Assembly: GCA_038893835.1 (NCBI GenBank)
Contig: JAWAQR010000001.1
Span: 32,001 to 96,000, forward strand
Direction of reading: 5' to 3'
DNA: 64,000 nucleotides
From: Archaeoglobaceae archaeon
Lineage (GTDB): Archaea > Halobacteriota > Archaeoglobi > Archaeoglobales > Archaeoglobaceae
Below are positions 21,412 to 35,431 of the stretch, in pieces. Made by a program: the position numbers and the translations under genes. Positions within the stretch are counted from its first letter, which is position 1; every line of letters begins with the position of its first letter. The notes under the pieces are model-generated. The model worked only from the letters and a program-made list of their open reading frames with translations, did no database searches and was not told where the DNA came from.

Positions 21412-22191
21412 CTATGACTGGACATCTCTACTCCTCATCGCCAAAACTGCTGCTCCCAATGCTCCAACTATCTGTGGCTCTTCTGGCACTTTTATCTTTA
21501 CACCAAGTTTCTCCTCCAGCGCCTTCTTAACTCCAACGTTTTTTGCAACTCCTCCAGTTAAAACAACATCCTCCCTTACACCAACTCTATTCACCAATCC
21601 AACAATTCTGCTCGCAATGGAATCGCAGATTCCTGCAACTATCTCCTCAATTCTTTCCCCCATCGCTATGTAACTAACAACTTCAGATTCTGCAAAAACT
21701 GTGCAGGTTGAAGAGATAGTTATTCTTCTCCTAGCCCTCATGGCTATCTCTCCAAGCTCTTCTACTTTTAAATTCAGAGCATTGGCCATAACTTCAAGAA
21801 ACCTTCCTGTTCCTGCAGAGCATTTGTCGTTCATAACGAATTCCAACACCTTCCCATTCTCAACAGCGATAACCTTGCTATCCTGACCACCGATGTCGAT
21901 GACTGTGTGGACAGTTGGAATTAGAAAAAATGCTCCCACGGCATGGCAAGTGATCTCTGTCACACTTTTATCCGCAAATTTGACCCGAGATCTTCCGTAT
22001 CCAGTAGAAAAAACTTTAGAAATATCTTCTTTCCTCAATCCAGTGATCTTTAAAGTTTCTTGGAATATTTCTTCAGCCGTCTCTTCAATACTTGGCTTAA
22101 CCTTCGAAATTCTATAAGCCAAGATTCTTGAATCTTGCAATATCACGCATTTTGCTGTGAGAGAACCTATGTCGATACCGGCTGAGATCAT
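21412..22191 (-). CDS. hgdC: 2-hydroxyacyl-CoA dehydratase activase (HgdC/BcrAD ASKHA ATPase)
   Basis: GIDIGS, TGYGR, EITCHA, DIGGQDSK, NDKCSAGTGRFLE, STCTVFAESE. Confidence 0.88.
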   Translation of the reverse strand: MISAGIDIGSLTAKCVILQDSRILAYRISKVKPSIEETAEEIFQETLKITGLRKEDISKVFSTGYGRSRVKFADKSVTEITCHAVGAFFLIPTVHTVIDIGGQDSKVIAVENGKVLEFVMNDKCSAGTGRFLEVMANALNLKVEELGEIAMRARRRITISSTCTVFAESEVVSYIAMGERIEEIVAGICDSIASRIVGLVNRVGVREDVVLTGGVAKNVGVKKALEEKLGVKIKVPEEPQIVGALGAAVLAMRSRDVQS

Positions 22192-23354
22192 AACATTTCC
22201 AGAAAAGCTTCTAACCTGTTTAAAATTTGCGCCTCGCTAAATGCGCGCTCATCTACCATGTCAGCCTCGATTATAACAGCCGGAACTTTAAGCCTCTTTT
22301 GAATCTCATACTGATTGAACGAATATGGCTTGCAGCTCCTATTTGAATGCATAACTACTCCATCAACTTCGTAGAATTCTATCAGTCCGTTTATGATTTC
22401 CACCATCCTTTCAAGCCCTATGTTTAAATATGACACCGTATAAACCTCCGCAAGGCTTGAAATTAAATCTGTGCTCTTAATTGTTCCAAATCCAGTCCAA
22501 GCGTTTGTGTATGTATCTGCTACCAAGCAGGCATTTCTATTTTCAAAGAATTCACCAAGCCATCTCAGACGATACCAAATCGGTATATTATCCCATAGAA
22601 GTCTTTTCTCTTCCCTTTCTATGGCAGAAATACAATTTTTCACCCTTTCTTCAAGCTCCTCTTTCATCTCTCTGTAAAAAGATATCGCATAATCCGTTCC
22701 ACGAAGACAAACAATTGGAGCCATGTTTATAAAAGCATCGAAGCAGGTCATGGGTGATGGCTTGAATCTAGCCATTTTTAGGCATTCACCGTAAAGTTTT
22801 ACCGCTTCAACGGATTTTGTAGCAACTTCTCTTAACTTTGAATCATCCAATGGATTTCCAGTGATCTTTTCAACGAATTTTATGAAATCGTATAGTTGCT
22901 CTTCCACATATTGCAAATGATATTCTTTTAGTTCTTTTCTTATGAATGGCACGTCTAAAATGAAAAGGGGGACTTTGAATATTCTACTGAGAACTTCATA
23001 CCACTTTACAACCGTGTTACAGATATTATTACAAGCAAATAGAAAACTAGGTTTTGGCAATCCACCTATAGGACTCGTTCCCGCAAAAACACAACCAATG
23101 TCGCACCTCGCATAAGAACATAGGTCTCTAGAAAAACCCCTCTTTTCCGCAAAATCAGAGTAATAAGCTCCAAGTTTTGCAGCACCTATTAGAGCTCCAT
23201 GGTTCTCTGGATAAACTGGATAAATGTCCATCGCATATAGAATTTCCACCGGAGCTCCGCTCGTTATCCAGGCTCTGAAATTTGCACTATGTCCCATCAT
23301 GTAGTAACCTGCCATGAGATTTCTCATTCTTTCAGCAATCCTCAATCTTTTCAC
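22188..23354 (-). CDS. 2-hydroxyacyl-CoA dehydratase subunit (HgdA-like)
   Basis: YPENHG, DLCSY, NNICNT.VKW, HSNRSCK, EADMVD, RLEAFLE. Confidence 0.85.
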   Translation of the reverse strand: MKRLRIAERMRNLMAGYYMMGHSANFRAWITSGAPVEILYAMDIYPVYPENHGALIGAAKLGAYYSDFAEKRGFSRDLCSYARCDIGCVFAGTSPIGGLPKPSFLFACNNICNTVVKWYEVLSRIFKVPLFILDVPFIRKELKEYHLQYVEEQLYDFIKFVEKITGNPLDDSKLREVATKSVEAVKLYGECLKMARFKPSPMTCFDAFINMAPIVCLRGTDYAISFYREMKEELEERVKNCISAIEREEKRLLWDNIPIWYRLRWLGEFFENRNACLVADTYTNAWTGFGTIKSTDLISSLAEVYTVSYLNIGLERMVEIINGLIEFYEVDGVVMHSNRSCKPYSFNQYEIQKRLKVPAVIIEADMVDERAFSEAQILNRLEAFLEML

Positions 23355-24325
23355 TCAATCACCTCTTTTAGAGCTTCTGCTCTCGTTCTTATCTGCTCAT
23401 AAGATGAAATTGGAAATTCTAATTCGATCAACACAACTTTCTTTCCTATCTCCTCTAATTTTTCTTTAAGCTGTGGAAAGTCAAAGAAATGGGGTTCACA
23501 GAATTTAACTAACATGAAAACCACTGCCTCGCAATCTTCTGCAAGCTTCAGCAAATATCTGAATCTGTAGTCGTCATCGTAATGCTTAGTCGGGCATGGA
23601 GCTTTTTTAAAGTATTTCTCAGCCAAATACTTCAGCGCAGAATCCATATCTCTAAGCTCGAAATTTGGATAATCGAATTCAAAAGCCCTTCTTCCTGTGC
23701 AGAGATCATCCTTTAAAACAAAGCCAGCCTTTCTAAAAATTTCATAAACTTCTGGATATGGACAAACACTTCCGGTTATTAGAATTTTCTTTCCATCTCT
23801 TTTTTTAGCACACCTTAACCTTTTATCCACAAGATCTATCGCCTTTTCTACTTCCATTTGCTGAGCTTTAATTGCAAGCTCGTAATCGGCGTCGATTTCA
23901 AAAAGTCTCATAATTTTTTCTTCTAGTTCTCTATACAATTTTATACTCTCTATCAACCCTTCAAAGCTAACTTCCCCTCCCCATTTTTCCATAACTTCGA
24001 TGAAATCCCTAAGTTCTCTTACGTAGTAATCCAGGTTTCCAATCTTTGTCGGAAACTCTATGTTATGGACCTTTTTTCCGAGGAACTCCAAGATGTCTGT
24101 CAATCTCATTAGTGTATCGCAGCTCCTTGTTACAACGAATCCTTGGAAATCCTCTCCGTTAAGTATAACTTCCAGTGCACCTCTTACTTGAGAGCAGGAA
24201 TAGCTCTGGATATAAGCTGAAGCGAGAGCGATTGGTTTTTTTGTTGCGAATATTCTATAAGGCAGAAAGCCTGCTGAATGTATTATTTCCCTAGGAGTAA
24301 AGCTGCAGAAATAGCCAATCCTCAC
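23351..24325 (-). CDS. 2-hydroxyacyl-CoA dehydratase subunit (HgdB-like)
   Basis: CSFTPREII, SYSCS, RSCD, DDLCTG, PCP, KFCEPH, QIRTR.EA. Confidence 0.82.
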   Translation of the reverse strand: MRIGYFCSFTPREIIHSAGFLPYRIFATKKPIALASAYIQSYSCSQVRGALEVILNGEDFQGFVVTRSCDTLMRLTDILEFLGKKVHNIEFPTKIGNLDYYVRELRDFIEVMEKWGGEVSFEGLIESIKLYRELEEKIMRLFEIDADYELAIKAQQMEVEKAIDLVDKRLRCAKKRDGKKILITGSVCPYPEVYEIFRKAGFVLKDDLCTGRRAFEFDYPNFELRDMDSALKYLAEKYFKKAPCPTKHYDDDYRFRYLLKLAEDCEAVVFMLVKFCEPHFFDFPQLKEKLEEIGKKVVLIELEFPISSYEQIRTRAEALKEVIE

Positions 24326-27682: not shown

Positions 27683-27994
27683 TTAAATATTTCCTAAAGA
27701 TTTCTCGAGTCTGAAAAACTCTTCTAATATCTGGCTTTTTATTCTCTTAACTACTTCTCTTGGCTCTTCTGCAATGTACTTGTACCCAAGCCGTCTCTCC
27801 TCAACTATTCTTTTCTTTACAATTCCTCTTTTCGTGAGCTCTTTCAATCTTTCCCTAACAAACCTCGTCGAAAGACCTAGTTCTTTTGCGATCTCTTTAA
27901 CTCCAAGCTCCTTGTTTAGAAGGATGGAGTATATCTTTACGTCTGATGGCTTCAATTTTATTTTCTCGATTATTTCAGCTATTTCATTCAGCAT
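27683..27994 (-). CDS. Small winged-HTH regulator (TrmB-like)
   Basis: IYSILL, EIAKELGLS.RFVRERLKEL..RGIV, YKY.AEEP; GGAGGTGA RBS. Confidence 0.8.
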   Translation of the reverse strand: MLNEIAEIIEKIKLKPSDVKIYSILLNKELGVKEIAKELGLSTRFVRERLKELTKRGIVKKRIVEERRLGYKYIAEEPREVVKRIKSQILEEFFRLEKSLGNI

Positions 27995-28010
27995 TCATTC
28001 ACCTCCATAG

Positions 28011-28043
28011 TATGAAGTTTTAAAATCATAATCTATTTAAACA
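28011..28043. promoter_or_regulatory. Divergent promoter region with candidate operator
   Basis: TATGA-N10-TCATA inverted repeat at 28011-28030; TATTTAAACA at 28034-28043 can serve as a TATA box in both directions. Confidence 0.45.
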
Positions 28044-28062
28044 TTGCGAAAGCATAATTACT

Positions 28063-29451
28063 ATGATCGACAAAGTTAGTTTGTTCTCTCATTTTATTAA
28101 TCCGATTACCAGATTAGGTTTAAAACAAATTTCCTCTTATTGTGAAGATTGTGGGAAAAATAGGATCGAAGTGGCACTTGAATTATTTGTGGGAGTTCGT
28201 AAAAATTCATGCTGGAAATGTAAGGCTGCTGAAAAGTTGATAGAACCGGTTTTGACGAGAGGTGGAGACAGCTTTAATGTTACGGTTGATGAGCTAAAGG
28301 AGAAATTTAAGGATCCCTACTGGCGCAAAGGGCTGGCAAGTGTGATAAAGGGTTTGGCAGAATTTGGAGTTAGAAAGCCATTCGTTCCCGGTGCACCGTT
28401 TCAAGTCGTATGGGATATAACTTATGCCTGCAACCTTCGATGCAAACACTGCTATGCAACAGCCGGTAAACCTTTGGAAAACGAGTTGACAACGGAAGAA
28501 GCTATGGACGTAATAGATAAGCTGGACAGACTGGGTGTGACGATTATAGCTTTTTCAGGTGGAGAACCGTTGGTAAGAAGAGACATTTATGAATTGACGA
28601 AATATGCAGCTGAGAAAGGAATATATGTTGCAATCGCAACAAATGGGATAATGATAAATGATGAAGTTGCGAGGAAGTTGAAAGAGAGTGGTGTAAGTTA
28701 TCTTCAGATCAGTCTAGATGGAATGAGGGAAACACATGAAGCTTTTCGCGGGATAAAAGGGATTTTTGATAGAACTGTAGAAGGAATAAAGAATGCAGTT
28801 AAAAATGGCTTTTTTGTCAACGTCTCGATGACCGTGACGAGATACAATTATGGAGAGGTTGAAGAGGTAATAAAGTTATGTGAAGAGCTTGGTGTAAACT
28901 GGTTCATGCATTACAACTTCATTCCAACTGGCAGAGGTAAAGAAATCGTTGAGGCAGATATAACTCCGGAACAGAGAGAGAAATTGCTTAGGATGCTTTA
29001 TGAAAGAAATTTCAATTCAAACATAAGCCTTCTCTCAACGGCACCCCAGTTTGCTAGAATAGCCTTTCAATGCTCTGGGAGCATAATACCAACGCACTTC
29101 TACAATGTAAATGCTGGAGAGAGACTTAAACAGCTTGCTGAATTCATAGGTGGCTGTGGAGCGGGAAGATTTTACTTTGCAATAAAAGCAAATGGCGATA
29201 TTACTCCTTGTGTCTTCTTCCCCTTAGTCGTTGGAAACGTTAGATTTGACGATCTTGAAGACTTGTGGAAGAACAACAGAGTATTCGAGGATTTGAGAAA
29301 CAAGGATAAAATAGAGGGTTGTGGTGAATGCGATTATCGTTACGTTTGTGGAGGATGTAGGGCAAGGGCTTACAACTATTTTAGTGATTATTTGAAGCCA
29401 GATCCTGGTTGCATTAGAAATAAGGCAGTTTGGAAGAAAATAACTGTATGA
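28063..29451 (+). CDS. Radical SAM/SPASM protein, probable GMGT (H-GDGT) synthase Gms-like
   Basis: CNLRCKHC, SGGEP, GGCGAGR, TPCVF, CGEC....CGGCRARA, PDPGC; N-terminal extension with CEDC/CWKC and DPYWRKG...G.AEFG..KP...GAPF. rSAM/SPASM is certain, Gms is inferred. Confidence 0.7.
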   Translation: MIDKVSLFSHFINPITRLGLKQISSYCEDCGKNRIEVALELFVGVRKNSCWKCKAAEKLIEPVLTRGGDSFNVTVDELKEKFKDPYWRKGLASVIKGLAEFGVRKPFVPGAPFQVVWDITYACNLRCKHCYATAGKPLENELTTEEAMDVIDKLDRLGVTIIAFSGGEPLVRRDIYELTKYAAEKGIYVAIATNGIMINDEVARKLKESGVSYLQISLDGMRETHEAFRGIKGIFDRTVEGIKNAVKNGFFVNVSMTVTRYNYGEVEEVIKLCEELGVNWFMHYNFIPTGRGKEIVEADITPEQREKLLRMLYERNFNSNISLLSTAPQFARIAFQCSGSIIPTHFYNVNAGERLKQLAEFIGGCGAGRFYFAIKANGDITPCVFFPLVVGNVRFDDLEDLWKNNRVFEDLRNKDKIEGCGECDYRYVCGGCRARAYNYFSDYLKPDPGCIRNKAVWKKITV

Positions 29452-30806
29452 TAGCATTGATAAATCCAAATGCGAGAGTTGAAGTTGTTAAAATGCTTGA
29501 AATATCTTCTCCTCCACTTGGAATTAGTTATCTCGCATCTGTTTTGCGTGAAAGGGGGTTTAAGATAAAAATAATCGACGACCTTGTTGAAAATTTGAAT
29601 TTTTCGGATTTGATAAAAAGGATAAGGGATTCTATAATAGTCGGTATAACCTCGACAACTCCAACCTTTAAATCAGCTCTAGAATATGCAAAAAAAATCA
29701 AAGAGGTTCTTCCAAACGTTTTTGTGATCATTGGTGGAGTTCACGTTACTTTTCATCCAGAAGAAGCGTTGAAAAATGAATTCGTTGATGCAGTTTGCAT
29801 AGGAGAGGGAGAGGAGACTATTGTTGAGGTTGCTGAAAAAATAGAGGCTGGGAGAAGTCTTGAGGGTGTAAAAGGGATATACTACAAGGAAGAAGGTAAA
29901 ATTGTGAAAAATCCTCCAAGAGATTTCATTCAAGACTTGGATTCTATCCCATTTCCAGCTTTTGACCTTTTACCATTGGAGAAATATTCTGTTTTAGGTA
30001 AAAAGCTGGAAGTTTTTCCAATGATAACCTCTAGGGGATGTCCCTTTGCTTGCAGATACTGCAGCTCCTCTCTTCTCATGGGTCATCGATTTCGTGCGAG
30101 GAGTGCGAAGAATGTAGTTGACGAGATGGAATGGCTTGTTGATGAATTCGATGCGAAACACATAGCCTTTGGCGATGATACGTTTACGTTGAAAAAGAGA
30201 AGGGTTGAGGAGATATGCAAAGAAATAAAGGAAAGAAAGCTGGAAGTAACCTGGAGCTGCTCTTCTAGGATAGATACTGTGAGTGAAGAACTTCTGAAGA
30301 TGATGAAATCAGCTGGTTGCACTGCGATTTATTATGGAATAGAATCTTCGAGCAAAAGAATTCTTGAATATTACAGAAAAAGAATTTCACTCGAAAGGGC
30401 GAAAGAAGTTGTTAAAATGACGAAAAAGTTAAAAATATCGACGATTTGCTCCTTTATCATTGGTGCACCGATTGAAACCAAAAAGGAAATGGAGGAAACT
30501 TTGAAATTTGCAATCGAGCTGGATCCAGATTATGCGCAATTCTCAATTCTCACACCATATCCTGGGACTGAGATATATAAAGAGGCAAAGGAAAAGAACT
30601 TGCTTCTGACGGAAGATTATGAAAAGTTCACAGCAGGGAAGCCTGTGATGAAGACTTTGATACCAGCTGAAGAGCTTGCAAAGTTTTTGAGAAAATGCTA
30701 TCTCAAATTTTATCTGCGACCGAAATTCATACTGCGTGAAATAAGAAAGGGGCACATTGGTTTAATCTTTAGCGTTATTAAGAAGGCTATAAAGTCTAAT
30801 TTCTGA
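29448..30806 (+). CDS. B12-binding class B radical SAM methyltransferase (Gmm-like)
   Basis: PPLGISYLAS, GGVHVT, GEGE, TSRGCPFACRYC, GIES, TPYPGT; ATGA overlap with the upstream rSAM gene. Confidence 0.75.
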   Translation: MIALINPNARVEVVKMLEISSPPLGISYLASVLRERGFKIKIIDDLVENLNFSDLIKRIRDSIIVGITSTTPTFKSALEYAKKIKEVLPNVFVIIGGVHVTFHPEEALKNEFVDAVCIGEGEETIVEVAEKIEAGRSLEGVKGIYYKEEGKIVKNPPRDFIQDLDSIPFPAFDLLPLEKYSVLGKKLEVFPMITSRGCPFACRYCSSSLLMGHRFRARSAKNVVDEMEWLVDEFDAKHIAFGDDTFTLKKRRVEEICKEIKERKLEVTWSCSSRIDTVSEELLKMMKSAGCTAIYYGIESSSKRILEYYRKRISLERAKEVVKMTKKLKISTICSFIIGAPIETKKEMEETLKFAIELDPDYAQFSILTPYPGTEIYKEAKEKNLLLTEDYEKFTAGKPVMKTLIPAEELAKFLRKCYLKFYLRPKFILREIRKGHIGLIFSVIKKAIKSNF

Positions 30807-30942
30807 ACTCCTTTAAAATTCTTGACTTTTTCAGGGCAAAGTAGGAAATTATGGAACAAAAAGCTGCAAGAAATATTGATCTTAAGCCAAAATTAGACAA
30901 ATAAAAGGCTATTAGAGTGACAAAGAATACGGAAACAACTGT

Positions 30943-30968
30943 TGAGCTGGCGGATATTTTCCAGCTCA
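30943..30968 (-). terminator. 8-bp hairpin overlapping the iorA stop codon
   Basis: TGAGCTGG-N10-CCAGCTCA perfect inverted repeat; terminator function is unproven. Confidence 0.3.
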
Positions 30969-32834
30969 GCTCTCTGATTTTCTCCTTATCGCCCCTTTCC
31001 TGCAAATCTGACTGCATACCCCACAGCCTATGCATGACGTTGCATCTATTTTAACCTTCCCATCATAGATCAAGGCTGGACAAGCGAATGTATTTACGCA
31101 TTCCATGCAAAGATCGCAATCTTCAGTTACTGTAAATGGAATAATCCTGCCCCTTCTCTTCATTTCTCTTGTCCATATCATCGCGCATGGCTGCCTTGCA
31201 ATTATAACAGCAACACCATCATGCTTTAAAGCCCTTCTTAGCACCTCTATCATTCTCTTAACGTTGTAAGGATTCACAACTTCAACGAATTCAACTCCAC
31301 AACCCCTTACAATGTCCTCTATAATCACCCTTTTCCCCCTTTCCCCACAAGCTCTAACTCCAGTCCCCGGATGGGGTTGATGACCAGTCATGCCGGTTGT
31401 TGAGTTATCCAGAATTACTAAGACGAATTTAGCTCCATTGTAAACAGCATTTATCAAAGCCGGTATTCCGGCGTGAAGAAAAGTAGAATCTCCGATAGTG
31501 GCTATTATTTTATCCTTTAAAAGATGGGCCAATCCATTGGAAACGCCCACACTAGCACCCATGCAAATGGTTATATCCACAGCTTCCATCGGTTTGTTAA
31601 TTCCAAGAGTGTAACAGCCTATGTCGCTTGGAAGACAGGCATTTCCGAGTTCGTTCACAACTTTCCTTATAGCATAAAAAGTGGCTGTATGTGGGCAACC
31701 TGCACAAAGAACTGGAGGACGAGGAGGGGCGAGAGACTTCAATTCGTCATTCTTTGTTATCGAAACCCTGTCAAAGCTAGTTTCCAAGCCAAGAACTTTT
31801 GCAATTCCACCTTCCACTATATTTATGTTATACTCATAGTCCATTGGAAAGTAGCCATTCAATTTGCCGAAAGTTTTTATCCCCATAGCCTTTATATGAA
31901 GCTCCAAAAAAGGATCGACCTCCTCAACCACGATTACAGCGTCGAGATTTGATGTAAACTTCTCAACAAGTTTCTCAGGCACAGGGTGTGCTGAAGACAA
32001 CTTCAGCAACGGTAGATTTAGCTTCAAATTTTCCATAGCTTCCTTCACATAACTGTAACTTAGCCCACAAGCAACCACACCAATCTTCCCCTTCCCATCC
32101 TCGATCCAGTTCATGCTCCAGTTGTTGAAAAATCTCTCAACCTCTTCGAGTTTTTTATCTAGAATTAGCTTCAACTTCCTCGCATGAGCTGGTAAAACTA
32201 CGTCGGTTTCTGGACTTCTCTTCCAATTTACTTTCTCAAGCTTTTTCCTCGGCAACTCTCCAAGAACCACAACTCCGCTTGCATGACTTAACCTAGTATA
32301 GCTGCGTAACATGACTGGTAATGAAAATCTTTCAGAAATTTCAAAGCATTGTTTCGTCATTTCCTTAAGTTCTCCAACACTTGAAGCCTCCACTACAGGC
32401 AACTTTGCCATCTTTCCATACCATCTGTTATCCTGCTCATTCTGACTGCTGTGCATCATGGGATCGTCTGCTGAAACCAGCACCAATCCACCCCTAGCGC
32501 CTACGTAAGCGAAGCTAAGCAGGGCATCCGCTGCAACGTTGACGCCAACGTGTTTCATACAAGCCATACCCCTTTTACCTGCAAGCGAGGCACCAATTGC
32601 GACTTCTAGTGCAACCTTTTCATTTGTAGAGTATTCCACATGATATTCAAGTCTATCCTTCAAAATTGAACATGCACTGCTCAAAGTATCTAGGATTTCT
32701 GAAGAAGGCGTTCCTGGATATGCTGCACAAACATCTATTCCAGCCTCAAGCGCTCCTCGTGCTATTGCCTCGTTTCCAAGTAGAAATACTCTTTCCCCAA
32801 CGCTGTCCTTGATGACGTCTTTTAGCATGAACAC
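30966..32834 (-). CDS. iorA: Indolepyruvate:ferredoxin oxidoreductase alpha subunit
   Basis: LLGNEAIARG, YPGTPSSE, NEKVA, KHVGVNVA, SSQNEQD, LCAGCPH, GDSTF.H, MTG.QP, two C-terminal ferredoxin motifs. Confidence 0.95.
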   Translation of the reverse strand: MFMLKDVIKDSVGERVFLLGNEAIARGALEAGIDVCAAYPGTPSSEILDTLSSACSILKDRLEYHVEYSTNEKVALEVAIGASLAGKRGMACMKHVGVNVAADALLSFAYVGARGGLVLVSADDPMMHSSQNEQDNRWYGKMAKLPVVEASSVGELKEMTKQCFEISERFSLPVMLRSYTRLSHASGVVVLGELPRKKLEKVNWKRSPETDVVLPAHARKLKLILDKKLEEVERFFNNWSMNWIEDGKGKIGVVACGLSYSYVKEAMENLKLNLPLLKLSSAHPVPEKLVEKFTSNLDAVIVVEEVDPFLELHIKAMGIKTFGKLNGYFPMDYEYNINIVEGGIAKVLGLETSFDRVSITKNDELKSLAPPRPPVLCAGCPHTATFYAIRKVVNELGNACLPSDIGCYTLGINKPMEAVDITICMGASVGVSNGLAHLLKDKIIATIGDSTFLHAGIPALINAVYNGAKFVLVILDNSTTGMTGHQPHPGTGVRACGERGKRVIIEDIVRGCGVEFVEVVNPYNVKRMIEVLRRALKHDGVAVIIARQPCAMIWTREMKRRGRIIPFTVTEDCDLCMECVNTFACPALIYDGKVKIDATSCIGCGVCSQICRKGAIRRKSES

Positions 32835-34450: not shown

Positions 34451-35431
34451 TCACCAGGGAAATTTCACTGCTTTTATTTTTTTCCCCTGAAATTCTATTT
34501 CTTCGAAAAGACTTTCTCCAAGTATTTCTTCAAGCTTTTCAATTTCATTAGCTTTGTAAACTTCGAAAACTGGCACATCTGCCAGTCTCAACTTCTCAAC
34601 AGCTTCTCTTGTAGTTAGATTTTCCATTTTTCTTTCAATCTCTTCCCTTATCCTTTCATAGTTGTTTATTCCATCCGCGAGACTGATCTTTGGCATTCCA
34701 AGAACTTCGCAAAGTTTTTTCCAAAAATGCTCCTCCGCAACTATGCCTATGGTTATGTATCCGTCTTTTGTCTTGTATATACCATATCCAGGATTCCTCG
34801 TCAGCGCTTTTACAAAGCTAAGACCGTTTAGGATTGAAGTGAAGTGAATTGGGACACCGAAAATTGCAGATTTCAGCATGCTAACATCTATCCTTTTTCC
34901 AACTCCAGTTCTTTCTCTCTCAATCAACGCCGAAAGTATCGCTATTACAGCCACCATTGAGGAAGAAAAGTCTGCAAACTGTAGATTTGGATCAAAAGGT
35001 TCCCCCTTTCCGCACAAGTCAAGTATGCCTGCCAATCCAAGGATGTTCACATCGTGAGCTGGAAACCTCGAGAACTTTGTTTTTTGTCCAAAAGCGGAAA
35101 TTGAGCAATATATTATTCCAGGATTTATTTTCGAAATAGTCTCATAATCTATTCCAAGTCTTCTCGCAGTTCCAGGTCTGAGACCTTCAACTATGACATC
35201 GGATTTTTCAGCCATCTTTAGAAATTTTTCTCTTCCATCTTCTGTTTTGAGATCAAGCTGAATTATTTTCTTACCAAAGTTTAATACCGCATAAATTTCT
35301 CCAAGCGCTCTTGCCGGATCTCCGTAAGGTGGTTCGATCTTTATAACTTCTGCTCCCAAGGATGCTAAAATACGAGTGGCAAAAGGGGCAGGATAATAAA
35401 ATGCAACTTCCAGAACTTTCACTTCCAGCAT
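34451..35431 (-). CDS. CaiB/BaiF family III CoA-transferase
   Basis: LGAEVIKIEPP.GD, LDLK, EGLRPG, CSISAFGQ, AHDVN, ADFSS. Confidence 0.9.
   Translation of the reverse strand: MLEVKVLEVAFYYPAPFATRILASLGAEVIKIEPPYGDPARALGEIYAVLNFGKKIIQLDLKTEDGREKFLKMAEKSDVIVEGLRPGTARRLGIDYETISKINPGIIYCSISAFGQKTKFSRFPAHDVNILGLAGILDLCGKGEPFDPNLQFADFSSSMVAVIAILSALIERERTGVGKRIDVSMLKSAIFGVPIHFTSILNGLSFVKALTRNPGYGIYKTKDGYITIGIVAEEHFWKKLCEVLGMPKISLADGINNYERIREEIERKMENLTTREAVEKLRLADVPVFEVYKANEIEKLEEILGESLFEEIEFQGKKIKAVKFPW

Follow-up and report, generated by a model that had tools for sequence, protein, structure and literature searches.

What are two radical S-adenosylmethionine (SAM) genes, joined by an ATGA overlap, doing side by side in an Archaeoglobaceae archaeon? 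The genes lie in a 64,000-nucleotide stretch of contig JAWAQR010000001.1 (assembly GCA_038893835.1; the whole stretch, of ~39% G+C, is called the window here), from a genome (G000) of 1.17 Mb in 35 contigs that is 97% complete. They very probably form a gms-gmm operon, a two-gene unit for tailoring the membrane-spanning lipids of thermophilic archaea in which Gms would cross-link glycerol dialkyl glycerol tetraether (GDGT) to glycerol monoalkyl glycerol tetraether (GMGT) and Gmm would then methylate the product. A first-pass annotation of the DNA had read the pair in this way, and this identity is supported by homology, domain architecture, phylogeny, gene neighbourhood and pathway context. 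The pair is a further example of an already published system and adds nothing new to the chemistry.

28063..29451, + strand: gms, putative GMGT synthase, 462 aa, with an N-terminal domain (residues 1-110), a radical SAM core and a SPASM domain
29448..30806, + strand: gmm, putative methylase of lipid tails (B12-binding radical SAM), 452 aa, with an ATG that overlaps the gms stop

The overlap and the cysteine motifs and domains named in the first-pass annotation are all there. The DNA at 29446-29454 reads gtATGAtag, with the ATG at 29448 running into the TGA stop (29449-29451) of the first open reading frame (ORF). An automatic ORF call puts the gmm start at a TTG at 29430; we take ATG 29448, which gives 452 aa, as the start because 43 aligned homologues share the start consensus MIxLINPNA. 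Protein 1 carries CEDC (27-30), CWKC (50-53) and the CxxxCxxC motif CNLRCKHC (C123, C127 and C130), followed by cysteines at 365, 383, 420, 423, 429, 432 and 450, all seven of which are invariant in 60/60 aligned relatives. Pfam recognises two domains, Radical_SAM (119-273, E 4.5e-36) and SPASM (365-424, E 8.7e-11), and has no family at E <= 0.01 for residues 1-110. Protein 2 has a B12-binding domain (PF02310, 21-128, E 9.2e-26) and a Radical_SAM domain (PF04055, 192-355, E 1.7e-29) with the motif CPFACRYC at 198-205, and at 452 aa it has the two domains and the length of at least 400 aa by which Gmm proteins have been defined in the published work.

Gms has been described as an AhbD-like radical SAM enzyme with an N-terminal extension of ~100 aa (‘COG4001’) and a predicted hydrophobic lipid pocket (Garcia et al. 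2024, PMC11214058). According to the same paper, the enzymes of Thermococcus guaymasensis, T. celer and Pyrococcus furiosus formed GMGTs in T. kodakarensis, and Archaeoglobus fulgidus, credited there with gms only, makes GMGT-0. For the Methanothermococcus okinawensis enzyme (MoGms), activity in vitro, three [4Fe-4S] clusters and a six-helix N-terminal domain are reported (Li et al. 2024, PMC11186832). The best homologues of protein 1 are from Archaeoglobaceae, including an A. fulgidus orthologue (WP_048064511/AAB89245) with 74% identity over 99% of the length. In NCBIfam the nearest models are AhbD (299.3 bits against a cut-off of 500) and NirJ2 (279 against 500), with TIGR04053 also among them; AhbD as the nearest model, at a score below its cut-off, fits the published description of Gms as an extended AhbD homologue.

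For phylogeny, relatives were drawn from 80 loci fetched in the search behind alignment A1, of which 79 are metagenome-assembled genome records and one is from a named strain, Methanocorpusculum petauri; Thermococcus, Pyrococcus, Methanothermococcus and cultured Archaeoglobus are unrepresented among the 80. The Gms tree contains 63 extension-bearing proteins: the window protein, three named proteins and proteins from 59 loci, these being the 59 kept from 74 full-length locus proteins after 15 judged to be near-duplicates were dropped. The genome's own AhbD-like and AhbC-like paralogues served as the outgroup. The extension-bearing proteins split from these paralogues with a Shimodaira–Hasegawa approximate likelihood ratio (SH-aLRT) of 97, the end branches being 2.3 and 3.1 changes/site, and a 22-row Archaeoglobi clade (SH-aLRT 94) unites the window protein with that of A. 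fulgidus. The phylogenetic check that the first-pass annotation had proposed thus puts protein 1 beside the A. fulgidus protein and apart from the paralogues. This position, far from the paralogues, therefore sets it outside a grouping with AhbC, AhbD, NirJ or the peptide maturases.

AhbD-like sequence occurs at three places in the genome: in the window, in a 355-aa protein on contig C18 and in the AhbC-like protein on C15. The C18 protein is without the N-terminal extension and passes TIGR04053 (454 against 395 bits). The AhbD cut-off of 500 bits is reached nowhere in the genome, the best score being that of the C18 protein (360 bits), and the AhbD-like paralogues align to protein 1 only from about residue 111.

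Structure prediction gives the same architecture. The AlphaFold2 model of protein 1 (predicted local distance difference test score, pLDDT, 87.8; predicted template modelling score, pTM, 0.90) has six N-terminal helices, and with the full-length model Foldseek returns general SPASM enzymes as its top matches (SkfB, SuiB, PqqE and anSME). A sequence search of the PDB returned no Gms structure, the relatives found being SkfB, PqqE and GDGT-MAS. One feature of the SPASM region departs from the M. okinawensis enzyme: residues 363-368 are GGCGAG, with a single cysteine, at the position equivalent to MoGms C370/C372. A minority of relatives (rows P0087, P0091 and P0108 of alignment A1) have GGCGCG there, like the MoGms pair. 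With only one cysteine in this motif, the fourth ligand of one auxiliary cluster may be a different one in the window lineage.

Some Archaeoglobaceae have a second Gms-type paralogue, 52-62% identical (L073, L084, L085 and L087, and also L079, L088 and L091), as in genomes G004, G007, G029, G030 and G062; the window's genome has a single Gms. In L087 and L079 the second paralogue is followed by a homologue of a further B12-type radical SAM protein of the window's genome. This protein (G000:C25:6527-7981) is 484 aa long, with weak B12-binding and radical SAM matches and no NCBIfam model over cut-off, and its homologues lie directly beside gms in 12/80 loci from Thermoplasmata, Baldrarchaeota and Archaeoglobaceae (for example L076, L087, L037 and L044). 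It may be a candidate GDGT ring synthase.

Protein 2 is likewise closest to Archaeoglobaceae proteins, here B12-binding radical SAM enzymes, with 61% identity to an orthologue from A. profundus (WP_012940057) and 53% to one from G. acetivorans. In a 25-row tree it falls in an 18-row clade with both (SH-aLRT 98). Its nearest NCBIfam models, BchE (279 against 481 bits) and HpnJ, are both below cut-off, and a sequence search of the PDB returned no Gmm structure, only the relatives AprD4, OxsB, TokK and CysS. The published account provides close parallels: gmm adjoins gms, and Tg-gms and Tg-gmm overlap in T. guaymasensis; Tg-Gmm methylated GMGTs, and GDGT only at trace level; A. profundus, a carrier of gms, gmm and grs, produces GMGTs that are methylated and cyclised (PMC11214058). 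Membership is judged there by a BLASTP match to Tg-Gmm at E <= 1e-65 and by a position in a Gmm clade separate from MoeK5. Prediction of a Gms-Gmm complex returned ‘no answer’ (scores 0.00 and 0.00), which speaks neither for nor against binding between the two proteins. In two related genomes the gmm orthologue is found in two adjacent pieces (G011, C7:19610-20957; G007, C93), which suggests a frameshift or an assembly error, and several other Gmm matches among the Archaeoglobi genomes carry one in-frame stop.

The pair is widely conserved within the Archaeoglobi. In 83 of 96 Archaeoglobi genomes protein 1 has a match that takes in part of the N-terminal extension; eleven have only AhbD-like matches, starting near residue 111 at 36-41% identity, and the two with no match are 54% and 90% complete. 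Protein 2 is matched at E <= 1e-60 in 66 of the 96. By coordinates, gmm lies directly 3' of gms in 17 of 19 same-genus genomes, one of the others being without gmm and one too fragmented, and the adjacency is found in 27 of the 95 Archaeoglobi genomes other than the window's own. Among the fetched loci, gmm follows gms in 16/80, several loci ending too near gms to judge, and in four Thermoplasmata loci a B12-binding radical SAM gene, 39-42% identical, lies just upstream of gms instead. Since these genomes are related and not independent, the adjacency counts serve to describe conservation and do not amount to a statistical test.

The genome also provides a context in which the two enzymes could act. 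Tetraether synthase, Tes, is encoded at G000:C5:51558-53141 (NF045702, 762 bits against a cut-off of 450, in a profile search of the genome), and the GDGT substrate for Gms should therefore be made. By analogy with the chemistry described in the literature, which was tested on the Thermococcus, Pyrococcus and Methanothermococcus enzymes, the pathway would begin with Tes making the tetraether GDGT. Gms, with its radical SAM [4Fe-4S] cluster, would then cleave SAM, and the 5'-deoxyadenosyl radical would take a hydrogen from a methyl group of one biphytanyl chain, the lipid being held, it is thought, by the hydrophobic six-helix N-terminal domain. A C(sp3)-C(sp3) bond to the other chain would follow, aided by the auxiliary clusters of the SPASM domain, giving H-shaped GMGT. 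Gmm, presumably made by coupled translation from the overlapping ATG, would draw on methylcobalamin and a second radical derived from SAM, and the alkyl chain of GMGT would gain one to three methyl groups. We infer that the window pair has these Gms and Gmm activities, with Gmm preferring GMGT over GDGT. GMGTs and methylated GMGTs serve as biomarkers of temperature and redox conditions and are believed to make membranes stiffer in heat, and an uncultured member of the Archaeoglobaceae with what appears to be a complete Tes-Gms-Gmm route may help to assign environmental GMGT signals to their producers.

Several points weigh against this reading. Likeness to the tested Gms enzymes (T. guaymasensis, T. 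celer, P. furiosus and M. okinawensis) and to Tg-Gmm is judged from published descriptions, and for the nearest cultured parallels, A. fulgidus Gms and A. profundus Gmm, the assignment was itself made from homology and the lipid profiles of the organisms, not by expression (PMC11214058). Archaeoglobus protein accessions were not found in the datasets of that paper, Dataset S5 giving organism names only. Both window proteins stay below every NCBIfam cut-off, and the library matches include no model for Gms or for Gmm. Gmm homologues are diverse, Cgm and Pgm methylating GDGTs and Ted being a desaturase (bioRxiv 10.1101/2025.10.20.683597), and in genus g12 five genomes carry a Gmm homologue of 52-59% identity although their matches to Gms are AhbD-like only. 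Close Archaeoglobi relatives of Gmm thus occur in gms-free genomes, and the substrate preference is therefore not readable from the clade. It could be that, with gene 1 as Gms, gene 2 lacks specificity for GMGT, acting instead in GDGT or archaeol methylation, like Cgm or Pgm, or in some other tail chemistry such as a Ted-like desaturation. The several proven activities among Gmm homologues (10.1101/2025.10.20.683597), the persistence of these 52-59% identical orthologues where a Gms-type gene is missing, a situation also reported for F. placidus and G. acetivorans (PMC11214058), and the trace methylation of GDGT by Tg-Gmm itself (PMC11214058) would all be accommodated. However, gmm is translationally coupled to gms and stays adjacent to it in 17/19 same-genus genomes, its 452 aa are below the >495 aa used to collect Cgm homologues, and Ted is only a distant homologue, with 31% identity to Tg-Gmm (10.1101/2025.10.20.683597), while A. 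profundus, whose Gmm is 61% identical, makes methylated GMGTs (PMC11214058). On this evidence a Gmm that is not GMGT-specific is unlikely.

Two further readings would remove the pair from lipid metabolism altogether. Older database names suggest tetrapyrrole metabolism, with a NirJ-2/AhbD-type haem synthase and a BchE-like cyclase: the A. fulgidus orthologue was deposited as ‘heme biosynthesis protein (NirJ-2)’, several gene 2 homologues are named ‘anaerobic Mg-protoporphyrin IX monomethyl ester cyclase’ by JGI, and the best NCBIfam matches are AhbD (299 bits) and NirJ2 (279 bits) for gene 1 and BchE (279 bits) for gene 2. These scores are far under the curated cut-offs of 500, 500 and 481, and AhbD is described without the N-terminal extension (PMC11214058). 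Shorter AhbD-like and AhbC-like genes are present elsewhere in the genome, and long branches separate gene 1 from them. Bacteriochlorophyll synthesis is not expected in an Archaeoglobaceae archaeon, and a tetrapyrrole role for the pair is highly improbable. A cassette for maturation of a cofactor or of a ribosomally synthesised and post-translationally modified peptide (RiPP), in which a SPASM maturase and a B12-dependent C-methyltransferase act on a peptide, would explain why SkfB, SuiB, PqqE and anSME head the Foldseek matches, the SPASM fold being like that of peptide maturases, and why RiPP enzymes are found among the sub-threshold NCBIfam matches, ApyD (209 bits) included. But every RiPP maturase model is under its cut-off, the 18 neighbouring proteins scanned include no peptidase, transporter or RiPP recognition element (RRE), and orthologues that match into the extension in 83/96 genomes are near-universal core genes in the Archaeoglobi. 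The first-pass annotation had remarked that no precursor-peptide ORF adjoins the pair, and indeed there is no credible one, the sole small ORF in the flanking spacers being a 24-aa frame with a TTG start (30822..30896). Peptide maturation deserves hardly any credence, and a gms-gmm operon remains the preferred reading.

A separate question for the Gms protein is whether the extra cysteines of the N-terminal domain form a metal site, as the first-pass annotation had suggested. Of 60 aligned proteins that bear the extension, 56 retain C27, 55 retain C50 and 56 retain C53, and position 30 is cysteine in 25, aspartate in 34 and threonine in one. The exceptions are four Archaeoglobaceae paralogues (L073, L084, L085 and L087), together with L077; the four paralogues form their own clade (SH-aLRT 100) without C27, C50 and C53. 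The three cysteines are invariant in a 44-row alignment of the N-terminal domain that was chosen without the exception rows. The models place C27 and C30 in the knuckle of a short hairpin, and C50 and C53 where the helix 51-70 starts (pLDDT ~90); this hairpin and helix-start geometry is common in Cys4 metal sites. The N-terminal domain modelled alone has a pLDDT of 86.8.

Comparison of folds does not decide the matter. Foldseek with the N-terminal domain gave no match at E <= 0.001 (best 4.4), and the highest Z from VIA-align over 48,161 chains was 4.3, with no recognisable solved relative among them, and fold likeness therefore supports the metal site neither way. A phmmer search with residues 1-110 against 1.84 billion representatives gave 72 matches at E <= 1e-3, in 71 of which the best-scoring stretch begins within the first 50 residues; as many of these are short and indistinguishable from fragments at contig ends, the matches say nothing about free-standing N-terminal domains.

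The single-cluster variants of Li et al. account for three Fe-S clusters only (PMC11186832). A fourth Fe-S cluster is therefore unlikely, whereas a zinc or mononuclear iron site is possible. From conservation and the models, Cys27, Cys50 and Cys53 with Cys/Asp30 may form a mononuclear metal site in a lipid-binding N-terminal domain. Three of the cysteines are near-invariant and the fourth position is Cys or Asp; metal binding, as suggested earlier, is no more than plausible. The word ‘zinc’ is not mentioned in PMC11186832 or in the main text of the Garcia et al. paper (Proceedings of the National Academy of Sciences), and ‘cysteine’ and ‘metal’ are likewise not mentioned in the latter, though the appendix of supporting information may show such a site. 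A 2026 review describes Gms as without a rubredoxin domain (PMC13459092). If the site exists, it would be functionally comparable to the rubredoxin-like iron of Tes, and the clade of Cys-less Gms paralogues would be a natural variant without the metal site.

How might the operon be controlled? The gene upstream is divergently transcribed and encodes a small DNA-binding protein, separated from gms by a short spacer.

27683..27994, - strand: small winged-helix (TrmB/ArsR-like) DNA-binding protein, 103 aa (Pfam TrmB E 2.1e-7, HTH_11, HTH_24)
27995..28062, no strand assigned: divergent intergenic region, 68 nt, with TATA-like and A/T-rich elements

The spacer has a TATA-like element, TATTTAAAC, at 28034-28042, 20 nt 5' of the gms ATG, and an A/T-rich element, TGAAGTTTTAAAATCA, at 28013-28028. 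The five closest loci retain TATTTAAAC, and six retain a loose dyad, TGAA-N8-(A/T)TC(A/G), that lies just upstream of it (alignment A4). The spacing of the TATA-like element from the ATG points to a gms mRNA with little or no leader, and the elements of the spacer are candidate promoter and operator sequences. A sigma-70 promoter and terminator scan has no bearing on archaeal DNA.

The winged-helix protein probably controls the gms-gmm operon, and the case for it as a candidate regulator comes from its association with gms. A homologue of the protein is present (E <= 1e-8) in 56 of the 95 other Archaeoglobi genomes, and in 36 it is divergent from, and within ~350 nt of, a Gms-type gene. The divergent pair occurs in 15 of 19 same-genus genomes and also in genera g2, g5, g6, g10, g15, g17 and g20. 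In the fetched loci the protein adjoins gms in 13/80, including loci that have none of the other flanking genes in common, and it is the sole neighbour that stays with gms as the rest of the neighbourhood changes. It may act as a dedicated switch for the temperature-dependent rise in GMGT seen in Archaeoglobus cultures, and its conservation beside gms across several Archaeoglobi genera would provide a handle on the heat switching of GMGT production. The words ‘regulator’ and ‘transcription’ are not mentioned in the main text of PMC11214058, nor is ‘regulator’ in bioRxiv 10.1101/2025.10.20.683597. That the locus extends the published picture of Gms in both respects, by a fourth metal centre and a dedicated winged-helix switch taken jointly, is a tentative proposal that we regard as possible, if rather doubtful.

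The gene downstream of gmm is convergent and indolepyruvate-oxidoreductase-like, and the other neighbours are housekeeping genes. A hairpin at 30946-30969 with a 7-bp stem (GAGCTGG...CCAGCTC) lies at the 3' terminus of this oxidoreductase gene, ~140 nt past the gmm stop, and may be a shared transcript end. Further away, three consecutive genes at 21412-24325 (- strand) encode a BcrAD/BadFG-type activator ATPase and two 2-hydroxyacyl-CoA dehydratase D-component (HGD-D) proteins, and a family III CoA-transferase is encoded at 34451-35431. These genes together have the look of a dehydratase system that would serve the fermentation of amino acids or hydroxy acids.

The closest known systems are those of the tested Gms enzymes: T. 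guaymasensis X802_RS00105/WP_062369926.1, T. celer A3L02_02305, P. furiosus PF0647 and M. okinawensis METOK_RS04425 (PMC11214058, PMC11186832). With these the window protein has in common the AhbD-like radical SAM/SPASM core, an extension of ~100-110 aa and six predicted helices, and its host, like theirs, is an obligate anaerobe with Tes. The numbers of two radical SAM cysteines, C123 and C127, coincide with those of the M. okinawensis enzyme, and the overlap of gms and gmm is common to the window and T. guaymasensis. The window protein differs in being the Archaeoglobaceae orthologue, known here from its sequence, and in having GGCGAG in place of the C370/C372 pair. AhbD (M. barkeri Mbar_A1458, TIGR04545) has the same core and is by score the closest curated family; in contrast to it, the window protein falls below the 500-bit cut-off and has an additional 110-aa N-terminal domain, and a separate AhbD-like gene is present in the genome.

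Gmm of the window resembles Tg-Gmm (X802_RS00110/WP_062369928.1; PMC11214058) in its B12-binding and radical SAM domains, its length of ~450 aa and its position directly downstream of and overlapping gms, whereas its own Archaeoglobi clade includes members from gms-free genomes. Cgm, Pgm and Ted (Saci_1785, the T. aggregans homologue and that of Ca. Bathyarchaeota B1_G15) are all B12-binding radical SAM enzymes of lipid tails that are homologous to Gmm. Cgm homologues were collected at >495 aa, against 452 aa for the window protein (10.1101/2025.10.20.683597), and the genes of all three are not reported there as coupled to gms.

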